A stretch of DNA of 64,000 nucleotides, taken from positions 79,399 to 143,398 of the forward strand of contig DASWOB010000050.1 in the NCBI GenBank assembly GCA_036398925.1, written 5' to 3'. Under the pieces are notes generated by a model. That model ran no database searches, was not told the DNA's origin, and saw nothing but the letters and a program-made list of their open reading frames with translations. Origin of the DNA: Thermoanaerobaculia bacterium. Lineage in GTDB: Bacteria > Acidobacteriota > Thermoanaerobaculia > Gp7-AA8. Numbering within the stretch: the first letter of the stretch is position 1; each line of letters opens with the position of its first letter. This document shows positions 23,775-58,353 of the stretch, piece after piece. The translations under genes were made by a program, and so were the position numbers.

Positions 23775-23846
23775 GATGCAGCGTGAGACGGCGATGAAGC
23801 CATTCCGGTTCTGCTCGCCAGTTCCCGCAATCCCCGATTCGAGCAG

Positions 23847-30281: not shown

Positions 30282-30389
30282 GCCGAGGCAGGAATTCACA
30301 AGTCGCGCCCGGCGCGCGGCTCGGCAGGGCTGTCCGATTTCGATGGACTTCCGGGCCGCGGTCTGCAATAGTTATCTCCACCTCGTCCA

Positions 30390-31046: not shown

Positions 31047-31055
31047 GAGACATCC

Positions 31056-32945
31056 ATGGATCTGTTCATCGCTATCGTCGTCGGTGCCATTTTTCTGCTC
31101 ATCGCCACCTTCGTGGTCGGCGTGATGATCGCGAAGTTCTACCGCAAGGTGGAGCAGGGGAAGGCGCTCATCGTCAACAAGATGAAGGCCGAGCCCGAGG
31201 TCACGTTCACCGGCGCGACCGTGCTGCCGATCATCCACAAGGCGGAAGTGATGGACATCTCGGTCAAGACCATCGAGATCGACCGCCGCGCGAAGGACGG
31301 CCTGATCTGCCGCGACAACATCCGCGCCGACATCAAGGTCACGTTCTTCGTCCGCGTGAACAAGACCGTCGATGACGTGATCAAGGTCGCGCAGTCGATC
31401 GGCTGCGTCCGCGCCTCCGATCCCGGCACGCTCGAAGCGCTGTTCAGCGCCAAGTTCTCCGAGGGGCTCAAGACCGTCGGCAAGCAGCTCGACTTCGTCG
31501 ACCTCTACACCAAGCGCCACGAGTTCCGCGACGCGATCATCAACCTGATCGGCCGCGACCTGAACGGCTACGTCCTCGAGGACGCCGCCATCGACTACCT
31601 CGAGCAGACGCCGATCGTGAACCTCGATCCGATGAACATCCTCGACGCGCAGGGCATCCGGAAGATCACGGAGCTGACCTCGACCGAGCACGTGCGCACG
31701 AACGAGTTCCAGAACACCGAGAAGAAGCTCACCAAGAAGCAGGACGTCGAGGCGCAGGAAGCGATCCTCGAGCTGGAGCGCCAGCAGGCCGATGCCGAGG
31801 CCAAGCAGAAGCGCGAGATCGAATCGGTCCGCGCCCGCGAGGCCGCCGAGCTGCACAAGATCCAGGCGGAGGAGCGCCGCCGCGCCGAGACCGCCCGCAT
31901 CGCCACCGACGAGGACCTGGCGATCGCCGAGCAGAACAAGCAGCGCCAGATCGAGGTCGCGCAGAAGAACCGCGAGCGCGTGGTCGGCATCGAGACCGAG
32001 CGCGTCGAGAAGGACCGCATGCTCGAGCAGGTCACGCGCGAGCGCGCCGTGGCCCTCTCGCAGATCGACAAAGAGAAGGCCCTCGAGGTCGAGCGGAAGA
32101 ACATCCAGGAAGTCATCCGCGAGCGCGTGGTCGTGGAGCGCAGCGTGGTCGAGGAGCAGGAGCGCATCAAGACCGTGCAGATGCTCGAAGACGCGAAGCG
32201 CAACCGCGAGGCGGTGATCATCGCCGCCGAGGCCGAGGCGCAGGAGAAGCTCGTCAAAGACATCAAGGCCGCCGAAGCCGCCGAGCAGGCGTCGCACCAC
32301 ATCGCCAGGCAGCGCGTCACGCTCGCGGAATCGGAAGTGGAAGCCGCCGACCGCGAAGCGCGCGCGAAGATCCGCCTCGCCGAAGGTCTGCAGGCCGAAA
32401 GCGCCGCGGAAGGGCTCGCCGCCGCGAGGGTCAAGGAAGCGGATGCCATCGCCAGCGAGAAGCATGGCCTGGCCGACATGCGCGTGAAAGAGGCCGAAGC
32501 GAACGCGATCGCGAAGCTCGGCGCGGCCGAGGCGTCGGTCATCGAGCAGAAACTCTTCGCCGAAGCGGCCGGTATCACCAAGAAGGCCGAAGCGATGAAG
32601 CAGCTCGACACCGCGTCGCGCGAGCACGAGGAGTTCCGCCTGCGCATCGAGACCGAGCGGATGCTCGGCACCGCGCACATCGCAGCGCGCCAGAAGGTCG
32701 AGGAAGCGAAAGCGCAGATCCTCGGCGTGGCGCTGCAGAACGCCAAGATCGACATCGTCGGCGGCGACGGCCAGTTCCTCGACCGCATCGTGAACTCGGT
32801 CGGAATGGGCAAAGCCGTCGACCACTTCCTCGGCGAAAGCGAGACCGCGCAGGCAGTGCTGGCGAAGCTGGGAGTGGCCAAACCGGCCAGCGAGATCGTG
32901 CCTCCGACGGTTTCGGCGAAAGTCCCGGTCGTGCGCGCCGACTAG
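31056..32945 (+). CDS. Flotillin-family SPFH/band-7 protein (YqiK/FloT-like).
   Basis: An AGGAGA RBS. An N-terminal TM helix, an SPFH domain and a long Glu/Ala/Arg-rich coiled coil (EAQEAILELERQQADAEAKQKREIE...). Confidence 0.9.
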   Translation: MDLFIAIVVGAIFLLIATFVVGVMIAKFYRKVEQGKALIVNKMKAEPEVTFTGATVLPIIHKAEVMDISVKTIEIDRRAKDGLICRDNIRADIKVTFFVRVNKTVDDVIKVAQSIGCVRASDPGTLEALFSAKFSEGLKTVGKQLDFVDLYTKRHEFRDAIINLIGRDLNGYVLEDAAIDYLEQTPIVNLDPMNILDAQGIRKITELTSTEHVRTNEFQNTEKKLTKKQDVEAQEAILELERQQADAEAKQKREIESVRAREAAELHKIQAEERRRAETARIATDEDLAIAEQNKQRQIEVAQKNRERVVGIETERVEKDRMLEQVTRERAVALSQIDKEKALEVERKNIQEVIRERVVVERSVVEEQERIKTVQMLEDAKRNREAVIIAAEAEAQEKLVKDIKAAEAAEQASHHIARQRVTLAESEVEAADREARAKIRLAEGLQAESAAEGLAAARVKEADAIASEKHGLADMRVKEAEANAIAKLGAAEASVIEQKLFAEAAGITKKAEAMKQLDTASREHEEFRLRIETERMLGTAHIAARQKVEEAKAQILGVALQNAKIDIVGGDGQFLDRIVNSVGMGKAVDHFLGESETAQAVLAKLGVAKPASEIVPPTVSAKVPVVRAD

Positions 32946-32952
32946 TCCATCC

Positions 32953-33062
32953 CCAGTGTCATCCTGAGCCCGCGCAGACGGGCGAAGGACCCCCTTCGAC
33001 ATGCGCGACGCCACGTGCATCCGCAAGCGCCGGGGGGTCCTTCGCTTCGCTCAGGATGACAC
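32953..33062. repeat. Nested hairpin of about 105 bp between the flotillin gene and the giant ATPase gene.
   Basis: Outer stem gtgtcatcctgagc / gctcaggatgacac. Inner stem gaaggaccccc / gggggtccttc. Confidence 0.55.
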
Positions 33063-33101
33063 GTGGGAGCGGGGGCTCCCCGCAACGCGAGGAACCGATT
33101 C

Positions 33102-36100
33102 ATGACCATCGAACGCGGCACCTACGAAGTCATCCGCGACCGCCTTTCGGCGCAGGGGAAAACCCTCGCTGAAAAGGCGGCGCGCCTCAACGCACGCCGG
33201 ATCGAGCTGTTCGGCGGGGCGGAGATGGCCCTCCTCGGCAGCGATCGCATTCGCACCGAGAACAACTGCGTGCCGCGCGACATCGCGGAAGCGGGCAGCC
33301 TCCTGCTGTTCGGCTACAACGTCTTCATCGGCCTCAAGACCGAGACGCAGGTGTCGGATGTCTTCTCGCTGCACCGCGTCGACAACTTCGCGGCGGTGCC
33401 GGCCGATGCGCCGGAGAACTTCCTCCGCGATCCGAAGTTCGCTCACGACTTCCGCGAGCTCTATCAGTACTACCGCAACTCGCGGCTGCTGCAACTGCGG
33501 CGCGTCGAGTCGAAGCTGCTGGCGGTCTTCCAGACCGGCGAGAAGCTGACCGACCTGCGCGTCTTCCGCTGGCAGGTGGCGGTCGACGGCAGCGTCACCT
33601 ACATCGACAACCGCGGCGAGCGCGATCACGTCTACCCGCCGCGCCACGACTTCGAGTGGATTGCCACCTCGCGCGAGCACCACGTGAGCGGCAAGCATCC
33701 GCACTGCTCGATCGAGGACAGCCTCTTCGTCGAGACCATCGGCGGCGACGTCACGTTCAAGATCGAGGACAACACCTCGACGGGCCGCGGCATCTTCAGC
33801 GAGCCGGTCGACGATCCCGATCAGTCGCTCGACGACGCGCAGATTCACTACGCGGTCATCGGCACGCTGATCCTGGTGAAGCTCCTCCCCTATCGCGAGA
33901 AGAGCTGGCGCTATTACGTCTTCAACAAACGGACGAAGAGCGTGCGGCGCATCGACGCCATCGGCGCCGCCTGCATCCAGCTTCCCGAGGATCACGGCAT
34001 CATCTTCCCGGGCGGCTACTACCTCCGCACCGGCGACGCCAGGATCTTCGAGGAGCACGATCCGAACGGGATGGAGTTCCTGCGCGCGGTCCGCGCGCCG
34101 AACGGCGAGGACGTGCTCTACGCGTTCCACCGCCGCGATGAAGGGCGGACGCTGCTTTTCTCGTACAACCTCATTCGCAAAGAGGTCGTCAACCCGCTCA
34201 GCTGCCACGGCTACTCGCTGTTTGCCGACGGCAAGATGATCATCTTCTCCGCGACCAGCAACGAGCCGACCCGCGTCCATCCGATGCAGATCTGGCAGAC
34301 GCCGTTCGTCAGCGACGACCACCTGGCGAAGACGCCGCAGCCAAATACGTTTCTCGGCAAGGTCGGCAACCGCGATCTCGTGCGTGGTCTCTCCAGCGCG
34401 CTCTCGATCTGCCGCCTCGTCGACGAACAGACCCCGTCGCGCGCGACCTACGAAGACATGGTCGCGGCCACCGCGCGGGTCATCGACGCGTATCACTGGA
34501 TCGGTCACGCCGAAGCCGAAGACCTCCTCTCCACGATCAAAGAAGTCCGCGCCACCGCGGAGCTGATCATCGATGAGTTCGAGAAGGTGGAGGCGCTGCG
34601 CGCGCAGGCCTCGAAGGCGGTCGGCGACGTCGAGCAGTCGCTCAACGAAAAGCGTCCCGAGCCGGCATCCATCGACGACTACGTCGCGCAGCTCGGCGAG
34701 CTCCGTTCGAAGCAGGGGCACATCATTTCGCTGCGCGAGCTGCGTTACGTCGATCGCGCGAAGCTCGACGCGCTCGAAGCGGGCGTCGTGGCGCGCTTCG
34801 GCGAACTGTCGCAGGCCACGGTGCAGTTCCTCCTCGACGAGAAGGCGCTGGCGCCGTTCGCCGAAAAGACCACCTACATCGAAACGCGCATCGCCAACGT
34901 CCAGAAGACCACCGACGCCGAGGCGCTCGTGCGCGAAGTCGAAGGGGTGGTCGGGTCGCTGAATCTCCTGACCGAGATCATCGGCTCGCTGCAGATCGAA
35001 GACCCGTCGGTGCGCATCCGGATCCTCGAGCGGATCTCGCAGCTGATGTCGGGCCTCAACCGCGTCCGCGCGCTCGTCGCGCAGCGGCGCAAGGAGCTGC
35101 TCGGCAAGGAACGCGTCGCCGAGTTCGCGGTGCAGTTCTCCCTCTTCACCCAGACCGTCTCCAGTTCCGTCTCCGGCACCGACACGCCGGAGCGCTGCGA
35201 TACCGAGCTGTCGAAGCTGATGCTGCAGCTCGAAGAGCTGGAGACCCGCTTCAGCGAGTTCGACGACTTTGTGGCGCAGCTCGCGGCCAAACGCGAAGAG
35301 GTGTACGACGCCCTCACCGCGCGCAAGCAGTCGCTGCTCGAACAGCGGCAGCGCCGGGCGGAGCAGCTGCAGCAGGCCGCGACGCGCATTCTCCAGGGGA
35401 TCACCCGCCGTGCCGGCACGCTCGGCAACGTCGACGCGCTGAACGCGTTCTTTGCCTCCGACCCGATGGTGGCCAAGCTCCGCTCGACGTCCGAGAAACT
35501 GCGCGAGCTGGGCGACATCGTGCGCGCCGACGAGATCGACGGCAAGCTCAAGACCGCGCGCGACGAAGCCGCACGCTCGCTGCGCGACCGGAACGAGCTG
35601 TTCGAGGAAGGGTCGAACGTGGTCCGCTTCGGCGAGCACCGCTTCAGCGTCAACACGCAGCCGGTCGAGCTGACCATCGTTCCGCGCGAAGAGCGCCCCC
35701 ACCTCCACATCACCGGCACCGGCTTCTTCGAGCCGATCGAAGAAGAGCTGGCCTATCCGAATCAGGAGCTGGTCTCCGAGACCGAAGAGGTCTACCGCGC
35801 CGAGTACCTCGCCTACGTGGCCCGCAACGGCGACGTGCGCGAAGCGATGGCGGCGCGCTACGACGAAGGCTACGAGCGCGGCGTGCACGATCACGACGCG
35901 CAGCTCATCGCCGAGAAACTGCGCGGCATGATGTCGACCGCCGGCCTCCTGCGCTACACGCCGAACGCGCGCGCCGCCGCCACGCTCTTCTGGGCCTTCT
36001 TCCCGGATGAATCGCTCAAAGCGCAGTGGTCCGCGCACGCGAAGGCCCTTCTGGACTGCGGTGGCAACGCCACCGCTCTCGCCCAGGAACTGCAGCAAGC

Positions 36101-38180
36101 CATCGAAACCTGGCTCCCCGTCGACTGCGGCAACATCCGCAACGCCGGCGCCTACCTCTGCGAAGAGATCTCGCAGCAGCCGATCCGCTTCGTGCTCAGC
36201 GCCGAAGCCGCGGACTTGTTGAACGCGGCGATCCCCAACCTCCGCGACCTCGACTGGCAGCGCAAGCTCGCCGTCGTGCGCACGTCCGTCCCGAACCTCG
36301 AAGCGGCGGCAGCGATCGTCACCAACGGCACGCTCTCGCGCGAGCGCTCCTCCGCGATCATCCAGACGAAGATCACCGGCCTGCTCGGCCAGCACCCGCG
36401 CATTGCCGGCGGCACGATGGAGCTGCGCCTCGACGAGTTCCTGGCGCGCCTCGGCACGTTCGAAGCGGAGCGCGTCCCCGCCTTCCGCGCCTACCAGCAG
36501 AAACGCCACGCCATCCTCGAGCGCGAGCGGAAGCGCCTGCGCCTCAGCGAGCTGCAGCCGAAGGTGATGTCCGCCTTCGTCCGCAACAAACTGATTTCCG
36601 AGGTCTACCTCCCGCTCATCGGCGCCAATTTCGCGAAGCAGATGGGCGTGGCCGGCGAGAAAAAGCGCACCGACCTGATGGGCCTTCTGCTGCTCGTCTC
36701 CCCCCCCGGCTACGGCAAGACCACGCTGCTCGAATACATCGCGGTGCGCCTCGGCCTGGTCTTCGTGAAGATCAACGGTCCGGCGCTCGGCCACTCGGTG
36801 AAATCGCTCGACCCGAACGAAGCGCCGAACGCCACCGCGCGGCAGGAGATCCTCAAGCTCAACCTCGCCCTGGAGATGGGGAACAACGTGCTGCTGATGA
36901 TCGACGACATCCAGCACACGCACCCGGAGCTCCTCCAGAAGTTCATCTCGCTCTGCGACGCGCAGCGCAAGATCGAAGGCTGCTGGCGCGGCGAAACGCG
37001 CACGTACGACCTGCGCGGCAAGCGCTTCGCCGTCTGCATGGCCGGCAACCCGTACACCGAGTCGGGCGAGAAGTTCGAGATCCCCGACATGCTCGCCAAC
37101 CGCGCCGACGTCTACAACCTCGGCGAAGTGCTGGCCGGCCGCGACGAGCTGTTCGACCTCAGCTACATCGAGAACGCCCTCACCTCCAACAGCATCACCG
37201 CGCCTCTGCTCACGCGCGATCCGAACGACGTGCAGAAGCTGGTGCGCATGGCGCGCGGCGAACAGGTGCAGGCCGACCAGCTCTCGCACGACTACTCCTC
37301 GGTCGAGCTGAACGAGCTGCTCGGCGTGCTGCGCAAGCTCAGCGTCGTGCAGCAGCTCCTCGCCCGCGTGAACCGCCAGTACGTCCTCTCGGCCGCGCAA
37401 CAGAACGCCTACCGCACCGAGCCGTCGTTCAAGCTGCAGGGCAGCTACCGCAACATGAACAAGCTCGCGGAGAAAGTCCTCCCCGCGATGAACGACGACG
37501 AGCTGCAGCGCCTCATCGACGACCACTACCTCGGCGAAGCGCAGACCCTCACCGCCGGCGCCGAAGAAAACCTCCTCAAGCTCGCCGAGCTCCGCGGCCG
37601 GATGACCGACGCCCAGCGCACCCGCTGGCAAGAGATCAAGCGCGGCTTCACCCGCGTGCAACGCCTCGGCGGCACCGAAGCCGACCCCGCCGCCCGCGTC
37701 ATGGCCGAACTGAGCGTCGTCAGCGACCGCATCGGCGAAGTGGCCCGCGCCATTGCCGGAGCGATCTCCGCCGCGGAAGCGCCGGCCGTCGCCCCCGTCG
37801 CAGCGCCCGCACCCACCCCGGTCGTCATCTCCGCCCCCGCCGTGCCGTCGCTCGACCTCACCCCCTACCTCGCCAAACTCGACGAAACCCTGCACGCCCT
37901 GCGCGAGCTCCACACCGCAAGACTCCCGATCGCCGCCGCATCCGCCGTCGTCGCCGCGCCCGCGCAACCACCGGCGTCCTCCCGTGAGGCCTACCTCATC
38001 CAGGACACCCTGATCCCCCTCCTCCGCTTCATGGCCCACCGCTTCAAGAGCTACCGCTCCGTCGCCGACCCGAAAGTGAAGCAGGCCATCGCCCGCCTCG
38101 AGTCGGTCAAGGACCTCGACCAGCTCGTGAGCACCCTGGAGAACATCAACGTCTCAGCGCTGGCGACGTTGACGGAGTAG
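33102..38180 (+). CDS. Giant (1,692 aa) protein with a long coiled-coil region and a C-proximal AAA+ (MoxR/AAA_5-like) P-loop ATPase domain. Function unknown.
   Basis: A GAGGA RBS then the ATG at 33102. Walker A LLLVSPPGYGKTTLLEYIA, Walker B NNVLLMIDDIQ and sensor-1-like FAVCMAGNPYTE. Extensive predicted coiled coil at aa 450-1000. It contains a 29-bp in-frame fragment of the MITE terminal repeat at 36051-36083. Confidence 0.8.
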   Translation: MTIERGTYEVIRDRLSAQGKTLAEKAARLNARRIELFGGAEMALLGSDRIRTENNCVPRDIAEAGSLLLFGYNVFIGLKTETQVSDVFSLHRVDNFAAVPADAPENFLRDPKFAHDFRELYQYYRNSRLLQLRRVESKLLAVFQTGEKLTDLRVFRWQVAVDGSVTYIDNRGERDHVYPPRHDFEWIATSREHHVSGKHPHCSIEDSLFVETIGGDVTFKIEDNTSTGRGIFSEPVDDPDQSLDDAQIHYAVIGTLILVKLLPYREKSWRYYVFNKRTKSVRRIDAIGAACIQLPEDHGIIFPGGYYLRTGDARIFEEHDPNGMEFLRAVRAPNGEDVLYAFHRRDEGRTLLFSYNLIRKEVVNPLSCHGYSLFADGKMIIFSATSNEPTRVHPMQIWQTPFVSDDHLAKTPQPNTFLGKVGNRDLVRGLSSALSICRLVDEQTPSRATYEDMVAATARVIDAYHWIGHAEAEDLLSTIKEVRATAELIIDEFEKVEALRAQASKAVGDVEQSLNEKRPEPASIDDYVAQLGELRSKQGHIISLRELRYVDRAKLDALEAGVVARFGELSQATVQFLLDEKALAPFAEKTTYIETRIANVQKTTDAEALVREVEGVVGSLNLLTEIIGSLQIEDPSVRIRILERISQLMSGLNRVRALVAQRRKELLGKERVAEFAVQFSLFTQTVSSSVSGTDTPERCDTELSKLMLQLEELETRFSEFDDFVAQLAAKREEVYDALTARKQSLLEQRQRRAEQLQQAATRILQGITRRAGTLGNVDALNAFFASDPMVAKLRSTSEKLRELGDIVRADEIDGKLKTARDEAARSLRDRNELFEEGSNVVRFGEHRFSVNTQPVELTIVPREERPHLHITGTGFFEPIEEELAYPNQELVSETEEVYRAEYLAYVARNGDVREAMAARYDEGYERGVHDHDAQLIAEKLRGMMSTAGLLRYTPNARAAATLFWAFFPDESLKAQWSAHAKALLDCGGNATALAQELQQAIETWLPVDCGNIRNAGAYLCEEISQQPIRFVLSAEAADLLNAAIPNLRDLDWQRKLAVVRTSVPNLEAAAAIVTNGTLSRERSSAIIQTKITGLLGQHPRIAGGTMELRLDEFLARLGTFEAERVPAFRAYQQKRHAILERERKRLRLSELQPKVMSAFVRNKLISEVYLPLIGANFAKQMGVAGEKKRTDLMGLLLLVSPPGYGKTTLLEYIAVRLGLVFVKINGPALGHSVKSLDPNEAPNATARQEILKLNLALEMGNNVLLMIDDIQHTHPELLQKFISLCDAQRKIEGCWRGETRTYDLRGKRFAVCMAGNPYTESGEKFEIPDMLANRADVYNLGEVLAGRDELFDLSYIENALTSNSITAPLLTRDPNDVQKLVRMARGEQVQADQLSHDYSSVELNELLGVLRKLSVVQQLLARVNRQYVLSAAQQNAYRTEPSFKLQGSYRNMNKLAEKVLPAMNDDELQRLIDDHYLGEAQTLTAGAEENLLKLAELRGRMTDAQRTRWQEIKRGFTRVQRLGGTEADPAARVMAELSVVSDRIGEVARAIAGAISAAEAPAVAPVAAPAPTPVVISAPAVPSLDLTPYLAKLDETLHALRELHTARLPIAAASAVVAAPAQPPASSREAYLIQDTLIPLLRFMAHRFKSYRSVADPKVKQAIARLESVKDLDQLVSTLENINVSALATLTE
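36051..36083. repeat. Partial copy (one terminal repeat) of the MITE-like family, embedded in frame in the giant gene.
   Basis: ctggactgcggtggcaacgccaccgctct matches 28/29 to the terminal repeat of the other copies. It encodes ...LLDCGGNATAL.... Confidence 0.5.
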
Positions 38181-38420
38181 CGGTGAGCCTTTGAGCTGTT
38201 GAGCTGTTGAGCTGTTGAGCGAGAAGTGTGAATGGAACCAGAGTCAACAACTCACTTCCTCGCTCAATAGCTCAATAGCTCAACAGCTAAAAAGCTCGAA
38301 CCCGGAGCTGTTCAGCTGTTCAGGCGAGGAAGTGAATTGTTGATTCTGGTTTTATCCACACTTCATCGCTCAACAGCTCAACACCTGAACAGCTGAACAG
38401 CTGAATAGCTGAATAGCTCA
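38181..38420. repeat. Two adjacent imperfect palindromes built from tandem 8-mers (GAGCTGTT / CAGCTGTT / TCAATAGC).
   Basis: gagctgttgagctgttgagctgttgagcgagaagtg...cacttcctcgctcaatagctcaatagctcaacagct, and cagctgttcagctgttcaggcgaggaagtg...cacttcatcgctcaacagctcaacacctgaacagctgaacagctg. The region is AT-richer than the surrounding sequence. Confidence 0.7.
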
Positions 38421-38451
38421 ACAGCTCGAAGGCGAAGCCCCCACGACCCGG

Positions 38452-39475: not shown

Positions 39476-39825
39476 GATGCTCTCTCCTCTCGAACCGGCC
39501 TTTGTTCCGGTTCCGCGATGTTGAACGGGCGGACTTGCGATGCCAGTCACAAGCTCGCCCGGTGAATCGCGCGGCCACGCGCCGTCGATTCGGTTTCAAT
39601 GATTGCCCGAAGCCATGGTTCTCCGGGGACCTCACCGGGGCGGGCTGGAGGAGCTGAGCTCTACCCCACGATGGTCGGCCGCGGCCTTGACTCAAGCCAT
39701 TGCGATCGGTCGTTTGCCTTGACTCAAGATGCACCCGGCGCCATATATTTGTCAACAGCTGAGCTGTTACAATTTTTAATGTTACAGAAATTGCTCTCGA
39801 TCGAAAGACGCGCGCTCTTCCGGTC

Positions 39826-40122
39826 ATGGAGATCGCGCACGACGGGAAGCAAAATTTGCACGACGGGAAGAGCCGCGCTCACGCCGGGAAGAGCGTTTTC
39901 CACGCGGGGAAGAAAAAGTTGCTCGACGGGAAGGGCGTGGCTCACGACGGGAAGAGCGGCGCTCTCGATCGGAAGGACTTTTTTCACGGCGGCAAGAGCG
40001 GCGGCCACGATCGGAAGAGCGTTTCTCACGAGCGCATCAGAATTTTCCTCGAGCGCGAGAGCCGCCGTCACGACCGGAGCAGCGTCCTTCATCGAATTGT
40101 GACGCTCGCTCATCAGCGTTGA
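39826..40122 (+). CDS. Possible small protein made of HDGKSxx heptad repeats, encoded by a 21-bp tandem DNA array. The coding status is uncertain.
   Basis: About 12 imperfect 21-bp repeats (cacgacgggaagagcg.....) between 39835 and 40095. The plus frame has about 77% GC3, versus about 64% for the antisense ALPVVxx frame. The stop overlaps the next ORF. Confidence 0.3.
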   Translation: MEIAHDGKQNLHDGKSRAHAGKSVFHAGKKKLLDGKGVAHDGKSGALDRKDFFHGGKSGGHDRKSVSHERIRIFLERESRRHDRSSVLHRIVTLAHQR

Positions 40123-40160
40123 GACCTCCGGTGATGACCGATGACGTACAACGTGTCGCC

Positions 40161-41078
40161 ATGAAGTCGCTGCTCCTCGCGCTCCTCCTCGCCGCTCATG
40201 CCGCCGACGTCACCGCCGATTGCCGTCATCTCCTTTTCGCAACCGGCGATGACGGCCGTCCTTCCGCCGGATCGAAAGAGACGCTGCAGCGAGCAGTCGC
40301 CGCCGGCACGCCGATCCGCGTCTGGTGGGGCATCGACGCCGATCGCGACGGCAAACACGACGTCACGCACTGGGCCGACGCCGTGTTTCTGACGGAATTC
40401 GAGGGGGAGCTCTTCACGCAGATCACCGAGATCCGCCGGCAGTCGCCGAAGGCCGGCACGGCGCACGTGAACCTCCATCCGGAGCCGGTCCGCTGGACCG
40501 GTTCCGTCGGCACGAACGGCACGCTGGAAGGTGCCTTCGACCCGGCCCTGGGTGAGCCGCGGCAGATGAAGCTGGCCACGAAGTGGTGCGCGAACGTGCC
40601 GCCGGACTGTTCCTCCGGCTGGCGCCTGGCGTACGAGCACGATCGCGACGGGAAGGCGCTGGGCGGCTCGAAGGAGCAGCTCTTCGCGGCGGTGCGGCGC
40701 GGCTATCCCATCCGCATCGCCTGGGGGATGCGCACCAACGACGGGAAGATCTCCGTCGAGCACGCGAGCGATACCGTCTTCGTGACCATCATGAACGGCG
40801 CGGAGGTCGTCGCGCAGCTGCCGGAGCACGCCAGCCAAACCTCGTACTGGAACGCGCAGGAGGCGAACTTTGACGCCGCCGGTGTGCTGTGGCGCGGAAT
40901 GATGTCGACCACCGGCGGCTTTGACGCGGTGTTCGTGAACCGCGGCAGCGGCGAGGTCACGAAGCGCCTGCCGCAGCGCGCGCGCATGCGCTGGATGGTG
41001 CTCGCCCCGCCCGCGGAGTGCGAGACGACGGCGGCGCCGGAGCTGGCAGTGACGGGTGGGGTGATCGTGGAGAAGTGA
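40161..41078 (+). CDS. Secreted protein with an internal tandem domain duplication.
   Basis: Signal peptide MKSLLLALLLAAHAADVTADC. The two halves are alike (GSKETLQRAVAAGTPIRVWWGIDADRDGKHDVTHWADAVFLTEFEGELFTQI versus GSKEQLFAAVRRGYPIRIAWGMRTNDGKISVEHASDTVFVTIMNGAEVVAQL). Confidence 0.6.
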   Translation: MKSLLLALLLAAHAADVTADCRHLLFATGDDGRPSAGSKETLQRAVAAGTPIRVWWGIDADRDGKHDVTHWADAVFLTEFEGELFTQITEIRRQSPKAGTAHVNLHPEPVRWTGSVGTNGTLEGAFDPALGEPRQMKLATKWCANVPPDCSSGWRLAYEHDRDGKALGGSKEQLFAAVRRGYPIRIAWGMRTNDGKISVEHASDTVFVTIMNGAEVVAQLPEHASQTSYWNAQEANFDAAGVLWRGMMSTTGGFDAVFVNRGSGEVTKRLPQRARMRWMVLAPPAECETTAAPELAVTGGVIVEK

Positions 41079-43690: not shown

Positions 43691-43803
43691 GGATGGAGGA
43701 TTGGAGGATTGAGGATTGAGGAATCCCCCCTCCCCGCGTTCGCGCCGCTCATCCTCTCATCCGAACACCCCTTCCTCAATCCTCAATTCTCAATCCTCAA
43801 TCC
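43691..43803. repeat. Hairpin with arms of tandem heptamers (GGATTGA)n / (CCTCAAT)n, directly upstream of relA/spoT.
   Basis: ggatggaggattggaggattgaggattgaggaat ... cttcctcaatcctcaattctcaatcctcaatcc. It begins 12 bp from the relA start codon. Confidence 0.7.
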
Positions 43804-47370: not shown

Positions 47371-47482
47371 AGGCTCCCCGCATCCCCGAGGAGCGCAGCG
47401 ACGTGAGGATCAACCAAGGCGCGGCGCTGCTGACGGCCGTCGGCGTCCGCGGATGAGAGCCCACACCACACCCGGGCAGCAT

Positions 47483-47583
47483 CTGGACTGCGGCAGCAAC
47501 GCTGCCGCTCTTTCCACGCCGCGGAGCGGCGCGCGGCTCCGCCGCGTATGTCATAGCGGCGGCGCTGCCACCGCAGTCCAGAT
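47483..47583. mobile_element. MITE-like element, short copy B (about 101 bp).
   Basis: atctggactgcggcagcaacgctgccgctct ... atagcggcggcgctgccaccgcagtccagat. The core is palindromic (cgccgcggagcggcgcgcggctccgccgcg). Confidence 0.55.
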
Positions 47584-47975: not shown

Positions 47976-49130
47976 ATGAAACAGCACTGGTCGCTCGACC
48001 CGAACATCACCTTCCTCAACCACGGCTCGTTCGGCGCGACGCCGCGGGTGGTGCTGGAGCGGCAGTCGCAATTTCGGGAGCAGATGGAGCGGGAGCCGGT
48101 GCGCTTTTTCGTGCGGGAGCTGGAGGCGCTGCTCGATGAGGCGCGGGAGAAGCTGGCGGCGTTCCTGAACGCGGACGCGGACGGTTTGGCGTTCGTGCCG
48201 AATGCGACGGCAGGGATCAATGCGGTGTTGCGGTCGCTCGATCTCGACAAGTTCGATGAGCTGCTGGTGACGACGCAGGAGTACAACGCGTCGGCCAATG
48301 CGCTCGAGTACGTGGCCAGCCTGGCGGGGGCGAAGGTGAAGACGGTGGAGATCCCGTTTCCGATCGATGCGGCGGAGACGGTGGTCGAGCGGGTGATGGA
48401 GCAGGTCACGGAGCGCACGCGGCTGCTGCTGATCGATCATGTCACCAGTCAGACCGCGCTGATTTTCCCGATCGCGGAGATCGTCCGGCGCCTGCAGGAG
48501 CGGGGCGTCGATACGCTCGTGGATGGGGCACATGCGCCGGGTTTTCTGCCGCTCGACCTGCGGGACCTCGACGCGGCGTATTACACCGGCAATCTGCACA
48601 AGTGGGTCTGCGCGCCGAAAGGGGCGGCCTTCCTGTACGTGCGGAAGAACCGGCGGATGTCGATTCATCCGATTGCCATCAGCCATGGGGCGAATTCGAT
48701 GCGGGAGGATCGCAGCCGCTATCTGCTGGAGTTCGACTGGACCGGGACGTTCGATCCGACGGCGTGGCTGTCGGTGCCGGCGGCGATCGACTTCATCGGC
48801 GGATTAGTGGACGGCGGTTGGAGCGAGGTCATGCGGCGGAATCGGGCCCTCGCATTGGAGGGGCGCGACATCATCGGACGGGGGAAGGCGGCGCCGGACG
48901 AGATGCTCGGGGCGATGGTGGCGATCCCGCTGCCCGACGGCAAGGCGACCAAAGCTCCGTCGCTCTATGGCGATCCGTTGCAGGATGCGCTGCTGTTCGA
49001 GGACAGTATCGAGGTGCCGATCGTGCCGTGGCCGCGTCCGCCGAAGCGGCTGCTGCGCATTTCCGCCCACCTGCACAACGAGCGCAACGATTACGTGAAG
49101 CTGGCGGAGGCTCTGCAAAGACGGCTGTAG
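47976..49130 (+). CDS. Class V aminotransferase (cysteine desulfurase/isopenicillin-N epimerase-like).
   Basis: FLNHGSFGATP, DGAHAPG and a HKW lysine region (TGNLHKWVCAPKG). Confidence 0.85.
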   Translation: MKQHWSLDPNITFLNHGSFGATPRVVLERQSQFREQMEREPVRFFVRELEALLDEAREKLAAFLNADADGLAFVPNATAGINAVLRSLDLDKFDELLVTTQEYNASANALEYVASLAGAKVKTVEIPFPIDAAETVVERVMEQVTERTRLLLIDHVTSQTALIFPIAEIVRRLQERGVDTLVDGAHAPGFLPLDLRDLDAAYYTGNLHKWVCAPKGAAFLYVRKNRRMSIHPIAISHGANSMREDRSRYLLEFDWTGTFDPTAWLSVPAAIDFIGGLVDGGWSEVMRRNRALALEGRDIIGRGKAAPDEMLGAMVAIPLPDGKATKAPSLYGDPLQDALLFEDSIEVPIVPWPRPPKRLLRISAHLHNERNDYVKLAEALQRRL

Positions 49131-49143
49131 GAGGTTTTTGCAG

Positions 49144-49749
49144 ATGAAGAAGTTTGCAGTTGTGCTGTTTGCGGCCGCCCTCGCGGCGTGCAACAGCCAG
49201 ACGGAAAACGCCGGACAGCCGGCGACGGATACCACCCCCACCACGGAAACGACCGCCACCGCGTACGACACCGCGGCCACGACCACCGGTTCGACCGGCG
49301 GCACCCTCAGCAATATGTCGCCGGAGGACAAGGAGTTCGTGATCAAGGCCGGCCAGGGGGGACTCGCGGAAGTGCAGATGGGCAATCTCGCCCTCGAAAA
49401 GGCGTCGCATGCCGACGTGAAGGCGTTCGCGCAGCGGATGGTCACCGATCACGGCACCGCCAATACGGAGCTGCAGCAGCTGGCCATCAACAAAGGTCTG
49501 AGCCTGCCGACCGAGCTCGATGCGCACCACAAGAGCGGCCTCGATCACCTGAACGGCCTCTCCGCCACCGAGTTCGACAAGGCTTACATGCAGCACATGG
49601 TCGACGATCACACCAAGACCGTGGCCGATTTCGAGAAGGCCTCCCAGAGCGCCAGCGACTCGGACGTGAAGGGGTGGGCGGCCAAGACGCTGCCGACGCT
49701 GCAGGATCATTTGCGGCAGGCGAAGGAAGTCAGCAGCAAGCTGAAGTAA
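49144..49749 (+). CDS. DUF4142-domain lipoprotein.
   Basis: Lipobox MKKFAVVLFAAALAAC. DKEFVIKAGQGGLAEVQMGNLA...FAQRMVTDH...KAYMQHMVDDH is typical of DUF4142. Confidence 0.75.
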   Translation: MKKFAVVLFAAALAACNSQTENAGQPATDTTPTTETTATAYDTAATTTGSTGGTLSNMSPEDKEFVIKAGQGGLAEVQMGNLALEKASHADVKAFAQRMVTDHGTANTELQQLAINKGLSLPTELDAHHKSGLDHLNGLSATEFDKAYMQHMVDDHTKTVADFEKASQSASDSDVKGWAAKTLPTLQDHLRQAKEVSSKLK

Positions 49750-49751
49750 TG

Positions 49752-49849
49752 CAGTTCCTCGGTTCCTCGGGTTCCTCGGAGTTCCTTGGCAGGAACCTGA
49801 GACTTGCCGAGGAACCGAGGAACTCCGAGGAACCGAGGAACCGCTTTTT
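49752..49849 (+). terminator. Repeat-built hairpin terminator of (GTTCCTCGG)n / (CCGAGGAAC)n, followed by TTTTT.
   Basis: gttcctcggttcctcgggttcctcggagttcc...ggaactccgaggaaccgaggaaccgc TTTTTC. It lies between two convergent stops (49749 on plus, 49850 on minus). Confidence 0.6.
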
Positions 49850-50614
49850 CTACTTCGCCGCGGCCGGCTCTTTCCTGGCCTTGAACTTCGCCTTCAAAAA
49901 GTCGCCGTTCATGCGGGCGATGAAATCCGTGGAGATGCTCTTCGGGCAGACCGCTTCGCATTCTCGGAACATGGTGCAGGTGCCGAAGTAGCTCTCCATC
50001 GTCTCGACCATGTTCACGGAGCGCTCCCACCGCTCGGGCTGACCCTGCGGGAGGAGGTTGAGGTGGGCCATCTTGGCGGCGGTGAAGAGGTGCGCGGCGC
50101 CGTTCGGGCACTGTGCGACGCAGGCACCGCACTGGATGCATTCCGCGGCGTCCATCGACAGCTCCTGCACCTGTTTCGGGATCAGGATGGAGTTCGCTTC
50201 CGGCGCGCTGCCGGTATTCATCGAGATGTAGCCGCCGGCCTGCACGATCCTGTCGAGCGGGCTGCGGTCGACGATCAGGTCTTTGATGACCGGGAAGGCG
50301 CGCGCGCGCCACGGCTCGACGACCACCTCGTCGCCATCCTTGAAATGGCGCATGTGCAGCTGGCAGGTCGCGGTGCCGCCCATCGGGCCGTGCGCGACGC
50401 CGTTGATCATCATCCCGCAGGAGCCGCAGATGCCCTCGCGGCAGTCGTGCTCGAAGTGGATCGGATCTTCGTTCTTGTCGATGAGGCCTTCATTGACGAC
50501 GTCGAGCATCTCCAGGAACGAGGCGTCGGGGCTGATGCCCGTCGCTTTGTAGGTCCGGAAGCCGCCTTCGGTGTCGCGCGTTTTCTGACGCCAGACGTGC
50601 AGGGTGAGATCCAT
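49850..50614 (-). CDS. sdhB: Succinate dehydrogenase/fumarate reductase iron-sulfur subunit.
   Basis: [27 protein letters not shown] and [12 protein letters not shown] cluster motifs. An AAGGAG RBS. Confidence 0.9.
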
Positions 50615-50640
50615 TGTTCGCTAGCTCCTTGCGTCCGAGT

Positions 50641-50745
50641 GAAGGGCCGAGGGCCGAGGGCTGAGGGCCGAGGGGGCGCAGGGCGAGTGCGGGGCAGCCG
50701 CGCCGCGGCTCCCTCGGCCCTCGACCCTCGGCCCTTGGCCCTCGC
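50641..50745. repeat. Intercistronic hairpin between sdhA and sdhB with arms of tandem (GGGCCGAG)n.
   Basis: gaagggccgagggccgagggctgagggccgagggg ... ccctcggccctcgaccctcggcccttggccctcgc. It ends at the sdhA stop and lies 25 bp upstream of the sdhB start. No U-tract follows. Confidence 0.7.
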
Positions 50746-52658
<1,913 letters not shown>

Positions 52659-52659
<1 letters not shown>

Positions 52660-53369
52660 CAGTCCAACCTCACGACTCGGGCGAGCACGGCCAACGGAAA
52701 GGAGACGTTGCCGGCGGTGATCAGGACGGCAAAGGCAGTGGCGAAGTGGCGGCGCAACCCCTCGAAACGGGGATTCGTCAGCCCCAGGGAGGAGAACATC
52801 GCCCAGAGACCGTGGTAGAGATGGAGGCCGAGAGCGAGGTTGGCAATGATGTAGATGGCAGACACCCACCAGACGTCGAGTCCAACGACGACGTTCTGCT
52901 TGACCTTGCCCGCTTCGAACGCCGGATGTGCATGGCCGGTGGTCAGATGCAGCACGTGATAGATGATGAAGAGGAGGAGGATCACGCCGCCCCATCGCAT
53001 CGTCCGCGATGCGTAGCTCGCCTTCACGAAGCCGCGATCGCGATAGCCGACGGGCCGCGCCTCGCGATTTTTCCTCGTCAACGCGTACGCCGAATGGATG
53101 TGGAAGACGACACAGACCAGCAGCAGGATGCGCGTGAACCAGAGCAGTGCACCTTCGGGCGCGATCGGCGCACCGAGCTCCCGCAGACCGACGGCATAGT
53201 GGTCCATGGCCGGGGCCATGACGCCTTTCGCATTTTCGTGATCGTGGAGGTACAGCTTCACGTTCCCCAACATGTGGAGAAAGATCCAGCCGAAAAGGAT
53301 CACGCCGGTAGCCGCCATGACCGCTTTCTTGCCAATGCTAGAGCGGTAAAAGTTCCCGAACCAAGTCAT
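52659..53369 (-). CDS. sdhC: Succinate dehydrogenase cytochrome b subunit (Bacillus/type-B-like, 5 TM).
   Basis: Hydrophobic helices carrying His residues ([33 protein letters not shown]). First gene of sdhCAB. Confidence 0.8.
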
Positions 53370-53447
53370 TCGGAGCTCACCTCGCGTTGGGTGTTGCAGT
53401 GAGGATGCGTTGGGGTGATGCGCGTAACGCGCGCCATATGCGGCGCC

Positions 53448-53475
53448 ATCATAGTCACCATGGGCGTACGGTCAA
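53448..53475 (-). promoter_or_regulatory. Candidate sigma70 promoter for sdhCAB.
   Basis: Minus strand TTGACC-N16-TATGAT, about 75 nt upstream of the sdhC ATG. Confidence 0.45.
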
Positions 53476-53504
53476 GTTGACGAGCGAGAGCAGGGGGATG
53501 TGAC

Positions 53505-53646
53505 AGCGAGCGATGACCGATGAACGATGAGCGATGAACGATGAACGATCTGCCGGTTCCCCGTTCATCGCTCATCTCTCATCGCTCATCTCTCATCGCT
53601 CATCTCTCATCGCTCATCTCTCATCTCTCATCGCTCATCGTTCGGT
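53505..53646. repeat. Asymmetric hairpin of tandem heptamers (CGATGAA/CGATGAG)n versus (TCATCGC/TCATCTC)n in the divergent region between sdhC and the ABC gene.
   Basis: The left arm has about 5 units (53505-53550). The right arm has about 11 units (53563-53646). Confidence 0.7.
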
Positions 53647-53708
53647 TCACCCCCGATAGCTGACATTCGTCAGTACCCGCTCCCCTCCCGCGAACGCATC
53701 TTCCCCCC

Positions 53709-54413
53709 ATGCTCACTCCCGTCCACCCTGCGACCCTCACCGCCGTCACCAAACGCTTCGGCAGCATCGACGCGTTGCGCGGCATCGATCTGACCATTCG
53801 TCCCGGCGAGCTGGTCGCCCTGCTCGGCGCGAACGGCGCCGGGAAGACTACCGCCGTACGCATCCTCCTCGGGCTGGCCTCGCCCGACGGCGGGACGGCG
53901 CGCGTCTTCGGCGGCAATCCGCGCGATGCGCGTCATCGCGTGCGCATCGGGGCGATGCTGCAGAGCAGCGCCGTGCCGGAGACGCTGCGCGTCCGCGAGC
54001 ATATCGACCTCTTCTCGAGCTACTACCCCAACCCGCTGCCGTTCGCGGAGATCGTCGAGGCGTCTGGACTGGCCGGGATCGAGAACCGCCTCTTCGGCAA
54101 GCTCTCCGGAGGGCAGAAGCAGCGCGCGCTCTTCGGCCTGGCGATCTGCGGGAATCCCGATCTCCTGCTGCTCGACGAGCCGACGGTCGGCCTCGACGTC
54201 GAGGCGCGCCGCGCGCTCTGGAAACAGATCCGCGCGTTCGTCGCCCGCGGCAAGTCGATCCTCCTGACCACGCACTACCTCGCCGAAGCGGAGGCACTGG
54301 CCAGCCGCGTGGTGGTCCTGCACCGGGGCCAGGTGGTCGCCGCCGGCACCCCAAGCGAGATCCGCGGCGACGCCGCCACGCTCGAAGACGCTTTCATCGA
54401 AATGGTGGGATGA
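53709..54413 (+). CDS. ABC transporter ATP-binding protein.
   Basis: GANGAGKTT Walker A, LSGGQKQR signature and LLLLDEP Walker B. Confidence 0.9.
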   Translation: MLTPVHPATLTAVTKRFGSIDALRGIDLTIRPGELVALLGANGAGKTTAVRILLGLASPDGGTARVFGGNPRDARHRVRIGAMLQSSAVPETLRVREHIDLFSSYYPNPLPFAEIVEASGLAGIENRLFGKLSGGQKQRALFGLAICGNPDLLLLDEPTVGLDVEARRALWKQIRAFVARGKSILLTTHYLAEAEALASRVVVLHRGQVVAAGTPSEIRGDAATLEDAFIEMVG

Positions 54414-54495
54414 GGGGGCAGGGCCGATGGACGCTTCGCGGCGGCCTGCCTTCAACCCCTTGACCCCCGGCCCTTGGCTCTCAAAGGACAACAAC

Positions 54496-55242
54496 ATGCG
54501 CATTCATCTGAAAGAAGCGAAATACGAATTTCTCAAAGCGCTGCGCCTGCCGGCGTACTCGCTGCCGACCATCCTCTTTCCGGTCCTCTTCTACATGTTC
54601 TTCGGGGTGATGTTCGGCGCGCAGGAGCTGAAGAGCGGGGTGACGCTGTCGGCGTATCTGCTCGCCACCTATGGCGCGTTCGGGGTGATCGGGGCGGCGC
54701 TGTTCGGCTTCGGCGTCTCGGTGGCCATCGAGCGGGGACGCGGATGGCTGGAAGCGAAGCGGACCACGCCGATGCCGGTCTCCGCCTACTTTTTTGCGAA
54801 GACGGCCATGGCCGTGATCTTCAGCGCAATCATTATCCTGCTGCTCTTCACTATGGGAATCGCCTTCGGCGGCGTGACCATCTCCTTTGGCAAGGCGGCC
54901 ACGCTGTTCGCCATCCTCATCGCCGGCGCGGTGCCGTTCTGCGCACTCGGTCTGGCGCTGGCCACGTTCACCAGCGCCACCTCCGCCACGCCGATCATCA
55001 ACTGCATCTATCTGCCGCTCGGTTTTCTGTCGGGGCTCTGGGTTCCGATCCAGGCACTGCCCAACCCGGTGCAGAAGATCGCCTTCTTTCTACCGCCGTA
55101 CCACTACTCGCAACTGGCTCTCGGCGTGCTCGGCGCGGACCGCGGCAGCTCTCCCCTTCTGCACATCGGGGTGCTCGTGCTGACGACCGTCATCTGCGGC
55201 ACGATCGCCTGGTTCGGCTTCCGCCGCGAGACGACGGCGTAA
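54496..55242 (+). CDS. ABC-2-type transporter permease.
   Basis: The ATG at 54496. Six hydrophobic helices, downstream of the ABC ATPase. Confidence 0.75.
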   Translation: MRIHLKEAKYEFLKALRLPAYSLPTILFPVLFYMFFGVMFGAQELKSGVTLSAYLLATYGAFGVIGAALFGFGVSVAIERGRGWLEAKRTTPMPVSAYFFAKTAMAVIFSAIIILLLFTMGIAFGGVTISFGKAATLFAILIAGAVPFCALGLALATFTSATSATPIINCIYLPLGFLSGLWVPIQALPNPVQKIAFFLPPYHYSQLALGVLGADRGSSPLLHIGVLVLTTVICGTIAWFGFRRETTA

Positions 55243-56942: not shown

Positions 56943-56944
56943 TG

Positions 56945-57046
56945 ATCTGGACCGCGGTGGCAGCGCCGCCGCTCTGAACTCGGCGCGGAGCGCCGCGCGG
57001 CTCCGCCGCGTGTTGATAGCGGCGGCGTTGCCGCCGCAGTCCAGAT
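56945..57046. mobile_element. MITE-like element, short copy C, wedged between two convergent stop codons.
   Basis: atctggaccgcggtggcagcgccgccgctct ... atagcggcggcgttgccgccgcagtccagat. It starts 3 nt after the response-regulator stop, and its last base is the first base of the 5'-nucleotidase stop. Confidence 0.55.
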
Positions 57047-58353
57047 CAGCGCAGCGCTTTTTGGAGCTCGGTGCGTACGCGCAATCCGCTCTTTTCTTTG
57101 TCGCACTGAAAGACGTCGCGGTAGGCCACGTTCGCCAGATAGTCGGTGGTCGCCACGCGCACGCGATCGCCGCTCGCGCTGCCGGCGATGAACGATTCGG
57201 AGTCGCTCCCCTTCCGCTTTGCACTCTCCTCGACGACGCGCTGCCATTGGGCGCCGGTCATCGTACAGACGACGATCTCGTTGTCGTACGGCAGGGCGGC
57301 GCGCAACTGCTCGGCGGTGATCGGGCCGGCGGGTAAGGCGTGGCGGAAGCTGCTGACGGTCGACAGGGCGACGTCGGCTTTCGTGGCGCTGCGCATGACG
57401 TCGAGCGTCCGCGCGGCGAGCCGCGGGACGTCCAGCGGCTCGCGCAATTTCGCGACGCGCTGGAAGAGCGGGGCGTAGGCGGGATCGCGCTCGAGCTGGC
57501 GTTGCAGTTTGCGGACACGCTGCGCGACCTCGCGATCGGCGCGCATGCGGCGGGTCACCGGCACGAGCTCGCCGCGGACGCGCGTCACCTTGCGATCGTC
57601 GACCGTCAGCTCGACGCGGGCGATGTTCTCGAGGTACTGGCCGGGCGAGATGAACCAGGTCTCCGTCCCGGCGATCCGCGTCAGCTCGCGCCGGATGTGA
57701 CTGTGCGTACCGAAAATGAGGTCGATCCCGGGGACGGCCCGGGCCAGCGCTTCGTCTTCCTCGGCGTGCTGGTGGCCGATCATCACGATCGCGTCGACCC
57801 CTTCCTTCTGCAGCTTCTGCACGCTCTCGCGCGCGGCCTGCACCGGATCGAGGAACTCCAGCCCCTCGACCTTCACCAGTGACGGGAAGTCCTTGCCCGC
57901 CACGGCGAAGACACCGACCAGCGTGCCTCCGATGTCGAAGATCACGTACTGCTGGAAGCCGCGCGTGTTCGCGCTGAGGATCGGATACGAGAGCTGCTCT
58001 TTGCACTGCCGGTAGGCGGCCAGTCCGTAGTCGGCGTCGTGATTGCCGAACGCCATCGCGCTGACGATTTCGTTGAGCCACGGCCACTCCACGCAGCCGT
58101 ACTTGTCCGACCACGCGGGCGAGCCTTTGTTGATCATGTCTCCGCCGCTGAAGACGAGCGCGCCGGCCCGCTTCTGCTCGCGGAGGTAACCGACCGCCCG
58201 CGCGATGCCGCCGCGCTCTCCCTCTTCCCCCGCGTAGAACGGCTGCGCGTGTGAGTGATAGTCGGAGAAATGGAGCAGCGTGACGGTGGTCTCGCCGTAG
58301 AGCGGAATGGCGAGCGGAATGGCGAGCAGCAGGAGCAGCAGACAGCGGCGCAT
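57046..58353 (-). CDS. Bifunctional metallophosphatase/5'-nucleotidase (UshA-like).
   Basis: Signal peptide. HFSDYH, GGDMINKG and GNHD metallophosphatase motifs. A C-terminal 5'-nucleotidase substrate domain. Confidence 0.85.
   Translation of the reverse strand: MRRCLLLLLLAIPLAIPLYGETTVTLLHFSDYHSHAQPFYAGEEGERGGIARAVGYLREQKRAGALVFSGGDMINKGSPAWSDKYGCVEWPWLNEIVSAMAFGNHDADYGLAAYRQCKEQLSYPILSANTRGFQQYVIFDIGGTLVGVFAVAGKDFPSLVKVEGLEFLDPVQAARESVQKLQKEGVDAIVMIGHQHAEEDEALARAVPGIDLIFGTHSHIRRELTRIAGTETWFISPGQYLENIARVELTVDDRKVTRVRGELVPVTRRMRADREVAQRVRKLQRQLERDPAYAPLFQRVAKLREPLDVPRLAARTLDVMRSATKADVALSTVSSFRHALPAGPITAEQLRAALPYDNEIVVCTMTGAQWQRVVEESAKRKGSDSESFIAGSASGDRVRVATTDYLANVAYRDVFQCDKEKSGLRVRTELQKALR

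Follow-up and report, generated by a model that had tools for sequence, protein, structure and literature searches.

A palindromic heptamer repeat at the sdhA-sdhB junction of a Thermoanaerobaculia genome and the class of intergenic hairpins to which it belongs

Background

An excess of heptamer repeats in the intergenic DNA of bacteria has been reported and is unexplained (PMC4692102). In Xanthomonas campestris and X. axonopodis such repeats, with the unit GGGAATC, occur in inverted (convergent) pairs (Rehm et al. 2015, PMC4692102). One unit dominates, at approximately 185 sites; some 70-75 pairs are inverted, many arrays are one-armed, and the pairs have no established function (PMC4692102). 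They are the closest known analogue of the element considered here, a hairpin with heptamer-array arms which lies between sdhA and sdhB in a soil Thermoanaerobaculia (Acidobacteriota) metagenome genome. The hairpin, referred to below as hairpin E, is part of a 64,000-nt stretch of this genome (contig DASWOB010000050.1, positions 79,399 to 143,398; hereafter the window), and we consider it to be, more likely than not, a lineage-specific repeat which its operon tolerates.

Hairpin E and the Xanthomonas pairs are alike in being made of tandem heptamers, about four units per array, with the arrays on opposite strands so that a stem-loop or cruciform is possible. Here as in Xanthomonas most of the repeats lie between genes, in gaps of every gene orientation, and show no tie to insertion sequences. 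Among the features of the Xanthomonas type, E possesses the 7-nt arrays (at least two units), the close convergent pairing and the intergenic position without an insertion sequence; what it lacks is the single genome-wide consensus (GGGANTN), the six hairpins of the window having different units in the approximately 70 kb of this genome that were examined in total. Unlike the Xanthomonas repeats, those described here have locus-specific units of 7 or 8 nt, and nearly every strong 7- or 8-nt array of the window belongs to an inverted pair. The phylum is also a different one, and quadruplex potential is found in E but not in its sister hairpins.

Other heptamers, the short tandemly repeated repetitive (STRR) sequences of cyanobacteria and Beggiatoaceae, include GGGGA(C/T)T in Nostoc and the TAACTGA repeats of Beggiatoaceae (PMC4679880). 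They share with E the heptamer period, an intergenic location which includes sites within operons and next to start codons, and the speed with which they come and go between relatives. Whereas E is inverted, STRR are almost always one-armed direct repeats which form no long hairpins; inverted examples amount to one case in Maribeggiatoa and a few in Nostoc.

Extragenic imperfect palindromes are also found inside operons in the case of the repetitive extragenic palindromic (REP) sequences and bacterial interspersed mosaic elements (BIME), as at the 3' structure of E. coli malE-malF, and of the intercistronic stem of Rhodobacter puf; both protect upstream mRNA from 3' exonucleases and serve as protective precedents (reviewed in PMC5927463). 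REPs are described as 20-40 nt long with a genome-wide consensus, a GTAG or CGTC tag and a dedicated transposase (PMC3733652). Hairpin E differs from these in its length of about 105 nt, its tandem heptamers, and its want of an end tag or of a consensus common to the sister hairpins; on size, consensus and GTAG/CGTC tag we rejected its assignment to REP/BIME. With respect to MITEs (miniature inverted-repeat transposable elements), the arms might act as the terminal repeats; at the two copies of a hairpin in the closest relative, L006 (see below), no duplication of the flanking bases can be seen, and the copies have unrelated interiors. Finally, the Escherichia coli sdhCDAB-sucABCD transcript is processed by RNase III 5' of sucA (Cunningham and Guest 1998, as cited in PMC5371410). 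This site resembles E as a structured intergenic segment in the transcript of a tricarboxylic acid cycle operon; it lies, however, at the sdhB-sucA junction, has another sequence and is not built of repeats.

The sdhA-sdhB Hairpin

The operon is of the type-B sdhCAB kind, with the minus strand as its sense strand. NCBIfam models identified sdhC (cytochrome b558 subunit, b558 family, 52659-53369), a Bacillus-type sdhA (flavoprotein subunit, 637 aa, 50746-52659; PRK07573, 1177 bits; TIGR01811 sdhA_Bsu; stop codon TGA at 50748-50746) and sdhB (iron-sulfur subunit, 254 aa, 49850-50614; ATG at 50614-50612). With the end of sdhC running into the start of sdhA, the sdhC-sdhA junction is tightly coupled; the only long spacer of the operon is that of 131 nt between sdhA and sdhB. 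It contains an imperfect palindrome of about 105 nt, hairpin E, which begins 2 nt past the sdhA stop and ends 27 nt ahead of the sdhB ATG.

The 5' arm of E (50708-50745, minus strand) reads GCGAG GGCCAAG GGCCGAG GGTCGAG GGCCGAG GG and holds 4-5 heptamers and five G3 tracts. The 3' arm (50641-50677, minus strand) consists of approximately 4.6 copies of a CCCTCGG-type heptamer and pairs with the 5' arm with three mismatches and one bulge. The centre between them (50678-50707, minus strand) is 30 nt of GC-rich, non-repetitive sequence with a short imperfect inner stem and loop. Tandem Repeats Finder returned a period of 7 for both arms (4.6 copies at 50643-50674 and 4.9 copies at 50711-50744), and an inverted-repeat finder gave 35-nt arms, 89% complementary, 30 nt apart. 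An earlier reading of this DNA made from the sequence alone (the sequence-only reading) had proposed an intercistronic hairpin of roughly 100 nt at this place, which is borne out, and an octamer, GGGCCGAG, as its repeat unit, which is wrong: the unit is the heptamer GGGCCGA, or GAGGGCC in another register.

Folding of the minus-strand RNA, one of the checks which that reading had named, yields a strong stem. Nucleotides 50600-50770 fold to -105.5 kcal/mol against -80.6 +/- 4.9 kcal/mol for dinucleotide shuffles (z = -5.1), none of 200 shuffles folding as well, and the 131-nt spacer alone reaches -94.1 kcal/mol with 44 predicted pairs. The 27-nt tail between the hairpin and the sdhB ATG (CACTCGGACGCAAGGAGCTAGCGAACA) includes the Shine-Dalgarno sequence AAGGAG (50625-50630, minus strand), 10 nt upstream of the ATG and free of the main stem, so that the ribosome-binding site does lie outside the hairpin as had been supposed. 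Directly after the stem comes CACUCGGACGCAAGGAG, which is not a U-rich tract; no T/U run was found 3' of the stem on the sense strand, and a scan of 49000-54500 for promoter and terminator consensus sequences found no site at E. The view that E is not a canonical terminator is in agreement with this, and as an intrinsic terminator we rejected it. The sole promoter-like site in the scan lies upstream of sdhC. Because none was found between sdhA and sdhB, E is probably co-transcribed with the operon, again as the sequence-only reading had it. No matches were obtained with Rfam 15 at gathering thresholds anywhere in the window, and at E <= 1 none fell on hairpin E within 49600-53800; the sub-threshold matches on hairpins concerned the sister hairpins only, and were to eukaryotic microRNA precursor models and one RpsF leader.

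Two further assemblies of the same population (ENA and JGI) were found by exact-protein look-up, and E is identical in both.

Sister Hairpins in the Window

Including E, the 64 kb of the window contain at least six hairpins which share one design, namely a tandem arm of 7- or 8-nt units, a centre and a complementary arm, and all six are intergenic. According to the gene calls and the map of open reading frames, A and E occupy gaps between co-oriented genes, B and D convergent gaps, and C and F divergent gaps. Hairpin A (6375-6543; (AGCTGTTC)n / (CTGAACAG)n) lies between two minus-strand genes. Hairpin B (38185-38433) is a nested 250-nt composite of (TTGAGCTG)n and (AGCTGTTC)n with their complements, folding to -163.7 kcal/mol, and hairpin D (49754-49843; (GTTCCTCG)n / (CCGAGGAA)n; -80.6 kcal/mol) separates a DUF4142 gene from the sdhB stop, with TTTTT following it on the plus strand only. 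Hairpin C (43691-43803; (GGATTGA)n / (TCCTCAA)n) is 13 nt upstream of the relA/spoT start, and hairpin F (53508-53643; (CGATGAA)n / (TCATCGC, TCATCTC)n) is upstream of the promoter-like site of sdhC. All five sister hairpins fold strongly, and three of the six hairpins flank or interrupt the sdh operon. Each has its own unit of 7 or 8 nt, A and B having AGCTGTTC in common. Periodic arms are present in 6 of the 12 strongest inverted repeats of the window; 30 dinucleotide shuffles of the window gave 0-1 weak arm pairs each.

The arms of hairpin F differ in length and in higher-order repeat pattern. Over 20.7 kb the single difference between the window and the ENA and JGI assemblies is an indel in the long arm of this hairpin, at approximately 53598-53640, and it measures exactly 21 nt, that is, three heptamers.

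No transposase or REP-associated tyrosine transposase domains were found among the window genes scanned, and a further 6.6 kb of the genome beyond the window contained no additional hairpins. A possible decayed copy of an arm of E, GAGAGCC AAGGGCC GGGGGTC AAGGGGT, occurs at 54449-54491 (minus strand) in the gap between ABC ATPase and permease genes, and resembles the arm even in the order of its variant units. It folds no better than shuffles (z = +1.0) and was rejected as a second hairpin; we regard it as a doubtful relic.

A gene cluster at 30372-38180 closes with a gene whose 1706-aa product has AAA, DUF7902 and DUF3686 ('ATPase involved in DNA repair') domains; hairpin B comes immediately after the stop codon of this gene.

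Orthologous sdhA-sdhB Junctions

The sdhA stop and the sdhB start were located in 156 distinct loci, cited here where needed by their L numbers. The two genes overlap or abut (spacer of 0 nt or less) at 89 junctions and are 1-20 nt apart at 31, 21-40 nt apart at 13 and more than 40 nt apart at 23. Since 120 of the 156 spacers are thus of 20 nt or less, most of them an overlap or direct abutment, the ancestral state was one of tight coupling. The best SdhB relatives are from Thermoanaerobaculia metagenome genomes with 77-82% identity, and scans of genomes and metagenomes for closer relatives gave none above 82% SdhB identity. In a neighbour-joining tree of SdhA plus SdhB from the four closest genomes, L006 is the sister of the window, and L003 groups with L001. 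The SdhA of L006 is 89.5% identical to that of the window, and its sdhA-sdhB spacer is 15 nt long and unstructured; that of L001, with 17 nt, is unstructured too. The comparison of orthologous junctions which the sequence-only reading had proposed therefore does turn up close relatives without a structured spacer, and the conservation of structure at the orthologous junction that one would expect of a decay barrier or a processing site of the malE-malF, puf or cip-cel type was not found.

L003 has a spacer of 111 nt with a (GTGCTGA)n palindrome, and a (CGACCAG)n palindrome is present at this junction in L019 (Roseiflexaceae). The unit of E matches that of the L003 hairpin at 5 of 7 positions. 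To judge from the tree, these two hairpins may represent one gain with losses or two gains, the sister of the window being without a hairpin. One-armed heptamer arrays are found at the junction in L090 ((GCAGAAG)6), L056 ((GTACTCA/GTACTTA)4) and L151 (G-rich, GGGTAGA-type). With the window, L003, L019, L112, L150 and others, structured or repetitive inserts recur here. The sdhA-sdhB junction is thus a place where DNA of this kind has settled repeatedly, and the hairpin itself is not conserved there.

The L090 unit GCAGAAG is nearly the same as a unit of L006, GCAGAAC. In L088 the spacer is 320 nt, and inverted repeats of about 45 nt bound an insert with a small reading frame (MKTYYVYIATNRNRTLYTGVTNNLQRR...), which resembles a GIY-YIG nuclease by eye only.

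The Class in Related Genomes

The class was surveyed in 1.42 Mb, composed of the window and related loci, for arrays of at least three copies. Inverted pairs accounted for 36 of 87 arrays of period 7 and 9 of 29 arrays of period 8, and for none of approximately 480 arrays of all other periods. A scan which started from structure gave the same two periods: of 59 strong inverted repeats, 18 had periodic arms, the period being 7 in 16 cases and 8 in two. The density is highest in the window (6 hairpins per 64 kb), in L003 (4 per 12.6 kb) and in L006 (2 per 12.7 kb), and the class is also present, more sparsely, in Gemmatimonadota and Chloroflexota. When each unit was sought in all loci, the units proved mostly genome-specific, recurring at separate loci within a genome. 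The arms of one hairpin from Gemmatimonadota (L047:7693-7851) are made of GGGAATC, the heptamer that dominates the Xanthomonas genomes.

The two hairpins of L006 (3954-4050 and 10732-10824) are 6.8 kb apart and have GAATGAA/GAACGCA units; one of them sits at the sdhC-sdhA junction. Their arms agree at all but one aligned position and show the same asymmetry, the centres are unrelated, and the copies cease to be homologous precisely where the arms end. A duplication of the target site is not visible at the copies examined. Similarly, two hairpins of L003 have GTGCTGG and GTGCTGA units in common and centres of very different lengths.

Four intercistronic hairpins of the class share a layout, namely a stop codon, 1-6 nt, the hairpin, and a tail of 17-27 nt with a GGAG-type Shine-Dalgarno sequence. 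The sense-strand mismatches in co-oriented hairpins comprise 6 G.U and 6 A.C, and show no G.U bias in this small sample. The notion that a common GAG trinucleotide is read by an RNA-binding protein with a 7-nt spacing was dropped, each unit offering 14-16 rotations and strands, and the octamers being a misfit. We found no literature on repeats or hairpins in Thermoanaerobaculia.

Probable Origin of the Hairpin and Its Possible Effect on the Operon

Directly established are the structure of E, its membership in the class, its non-conservation, the length instability of hairpin F and the copying of arms between loci in the relatives. The explanation we favour, and hold to be probable, is that E is a lineage-specific palindromic heptamer repeat tolerated by the operon, belonging to a class that arises, spreads and changes length quickly. 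The arrays would grow by slippage within each arm, and the sequence of one arm would be transferred to the other through fold-back or template switching. E would have displaced a junction at which sdhA and sdhB ancestrally overlapped or were separated by very little. As the insert is predicted to fold into a stem of 44 pairs, the stop codon and the sdhB Shine-Dalgarno sequence would remain spatially close; because the ends of the hairpin are adjacent in space, little effective distance would be added between the terminating ribosome and the initiation region of sdhB, which presumably is initiated from its own AAGGAG. One might expect only those inserts to survive that spare the Shine-Dalgarno sequence. 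The present insert folds out of the way, and sdhB retains a ribosome-binding site that belongs to it alone, which suggests how the insert is tolerated. Like other long GC-rich intercistronic stems, this one should be a barrier to 3'-to-5' exonucleases, and its length would permit cutting by RNase III. The stability of the sdhCA segment relative to that of sdhB may shift in consequence, as a by-product and not as a conserved design; a side-effect of this kind on mRNA decay is plausible on general grounds.

Three observations weigh against this explanation. In the approximately 70 kb examined the GGGCCGA element is single-copy, the doubtful relic at 54449-54491 apart. The recurrence of inserts at sdhA-sdhB could mean that uncoupling of the two genes is sometimes advantageous. 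Thirdly, a hairpin with (GTTCACN)4 arms at the sucC-sucD junction is kept in three loci (L012:7987-8071, L113:5492-5572 and L153:5083-5165), the flanking genes of L012 being only about 69% identical to those of the other two. In all three the sucC stop TGA falls inside a conserved second unit, GTTGAC, and part of the conservation is for this reason attributable to coding constraint; the complementary arm is retained too. Comparison of the three sequences clearly indicates that some members of the class persist under constraint.

A dedicated regulatory role of E in sdh is neither excluded nor supported. It might be a selected post-transcriptional regulator, acting as a decay barrier for sdhCA or as an RNase III site and so tuning subunit ratios. 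Its place on the operon transcript, where internal promoter or terminator signals were not found, the length of its stem for RNase III and its strength against exonucleases would suit such a role, as would the acquisition of hairpins at the same junction by independent lineages; intercistronic stems with these roles are documented (PMC5927463, PMC4423207), and E. coli processes its sdh-suc transcript with RNase III (PMC5371410). We nevertheless think a regulator unlikely. The sister genome L006 does without a hairpin at sdhA-sdhB, the same designs stand in divergent promoter gaps and in convergent gaps where the role would be senseless, and the equal numbers of G.U and A.C mismatches give no sign of selection for pairing in the sense RNA. 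SdhA and SdhB, moreover, assemble 1:1, and most relatives couple their genes by overlap or abutment. On the whole the comparative evidence leans against E as a device for SdhA:SdhB stoichiometry or as a dedicated processing site, the functions which the sequence-only reading had suggested. It is also improbable, in our estimation, that E is a mobile or enzyme-propagated element, REP- or MITE-like, with heptamer arms as its recognised ends, inserted by a transposase or by fold-back repair and functioning, if at all, at the level of DNA. In favour of this are the L006 pair, with its nearly identical, equally asymmetric arms, its unrelated loops and its homology that ends at the arm edges, the sharing of units by distinct loci both in L003 and in the window, and the presence in the window of a second, non-tandem family of dispersed palindromes. 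Against it stand the invisibility of a target-site duplication at the copies examined, the absence of transposase or REP tyrosine transposase domains among the scanned window genes, the mostly locus-specific units, and the individual pattern and length of each arm in hairpin F, which fit local slippage.

Partial termination or attenuation at E, lowering the transcription of sdhB relative to sdhCA, would be a natural thought for a very stable GC-rich stem directly after a stop codon, the more so as the sister hairpins D and B are at classic terminator positions between convergent genes. It is made very unlikely by the lack of a U-tract on the sense strand and of a site at E in the consensus scan; furthermore, since the scan gave no promoter-like site for sdhB itself, efficient termination would starve the cell of an essential subunit. 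Still less credible is a switch in which the G-rich arm forms an RNA or DNA G-quadruplex in competition with the hairpin. Both arms of E do contain a canonical G3-N4 quadruplex motif, and comparable heptamer repeats of Xanthomonas and Nostoc form quadruplexes in vitro (PMC4692102), but a fully complementary C-rich arm only 30 nt away should let the duplex prevail, and quadruplex formation does not define the class because G3 tracts are absent from all five sister hairpins in the window. As for an artefact in the assembly of a metagenome contig, short-read assemblers have difficulty with palindromes and with short tandem repeats, and hairpin F does differ by 21 nt between assemblies; E, however, is the same in the window and in the ENA and JGI assemblies, fits exactly between the stop codon on one side and the Shine-Dalgarno sequence and ATG on the other, all of them intact, and has equivalents in many unrelated projects, so that we give this idea almost no credence.

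Significance of the Class

For sdh itself the consequence of a tolerated repeat is modest: a structured insert of 105 nt sits between genes that nearly all relatives keep overlapping. The main interest lies in the regularities of the class, that is, periods of 7 and 8, a separate unit at each locus and arms copied without their centres. With repeats that are almost always palindromic, units that are locus-specific and no periods other than 7 and 8, this lineage offers a clean case of the heptamer excess, and these regularities, together with the arm copies having different centres, constrain models of repeat origin. Pipelines for annotation and operon prediction will meet the class in Acidobacteriota genomes as very stable hairpins.

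A further possibility, tentative and in our opinion rather unlikely, is that the class represents an undescribed self-propagating intergenic palindrome with 7- or 8-nt array arms, found in Thermoanaerobaculia and more sparsely in Gemmatimonadota and Chloroflexota. If so, the arms would be copied between loci and the centre made anew, perhaps through fold-back priming at a break or through an enzyme dedicated to the task; tightly coupled operon junctions would be within reach because palindromes fold away; and inverted pairing would be confined to periods 7 and 8 by the size of the steps in which the building machinery works.

Other Features of the Window

The dispersed non-tandem palindrome mentioned above is about 110 nt long (ATCTGGACTGCGGCGGCAACGCCGCCGCT ... 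AGCGGCGGCGCTGCCACCGCAGTCCAGAT) and has two copies, 82% identical, at 47481-47583 and 56943-57048; it is a second, REP/MITE-like dispersed family. At 23843-24080 a 43-nt unit, within which lies the palindrome GATATCCATGGATATC, is repeated in tandem 5.5 times (94% matches). This array overlaps the 5' end of a stop-to-stop frame (23505-23924, minus strand) which holds a helix-turn-helix (HTH_3) gene, and looks like an operator array. Imperfect tandem repeats of 21, 42 and 63 nt, of the CACGACGGGAAGAGCG type, occupy 39834-40031 inside the stop-to-stop frame 39780-41078 (plus strand). Lastly, at 8999-9233, in the gap between two minus-strand genes, there is a large nested inverted repeat with 64-nt arms (84% complementary) and inner 28-nt arms (9078-9156; 96% complementary); it is not tandem-armed.

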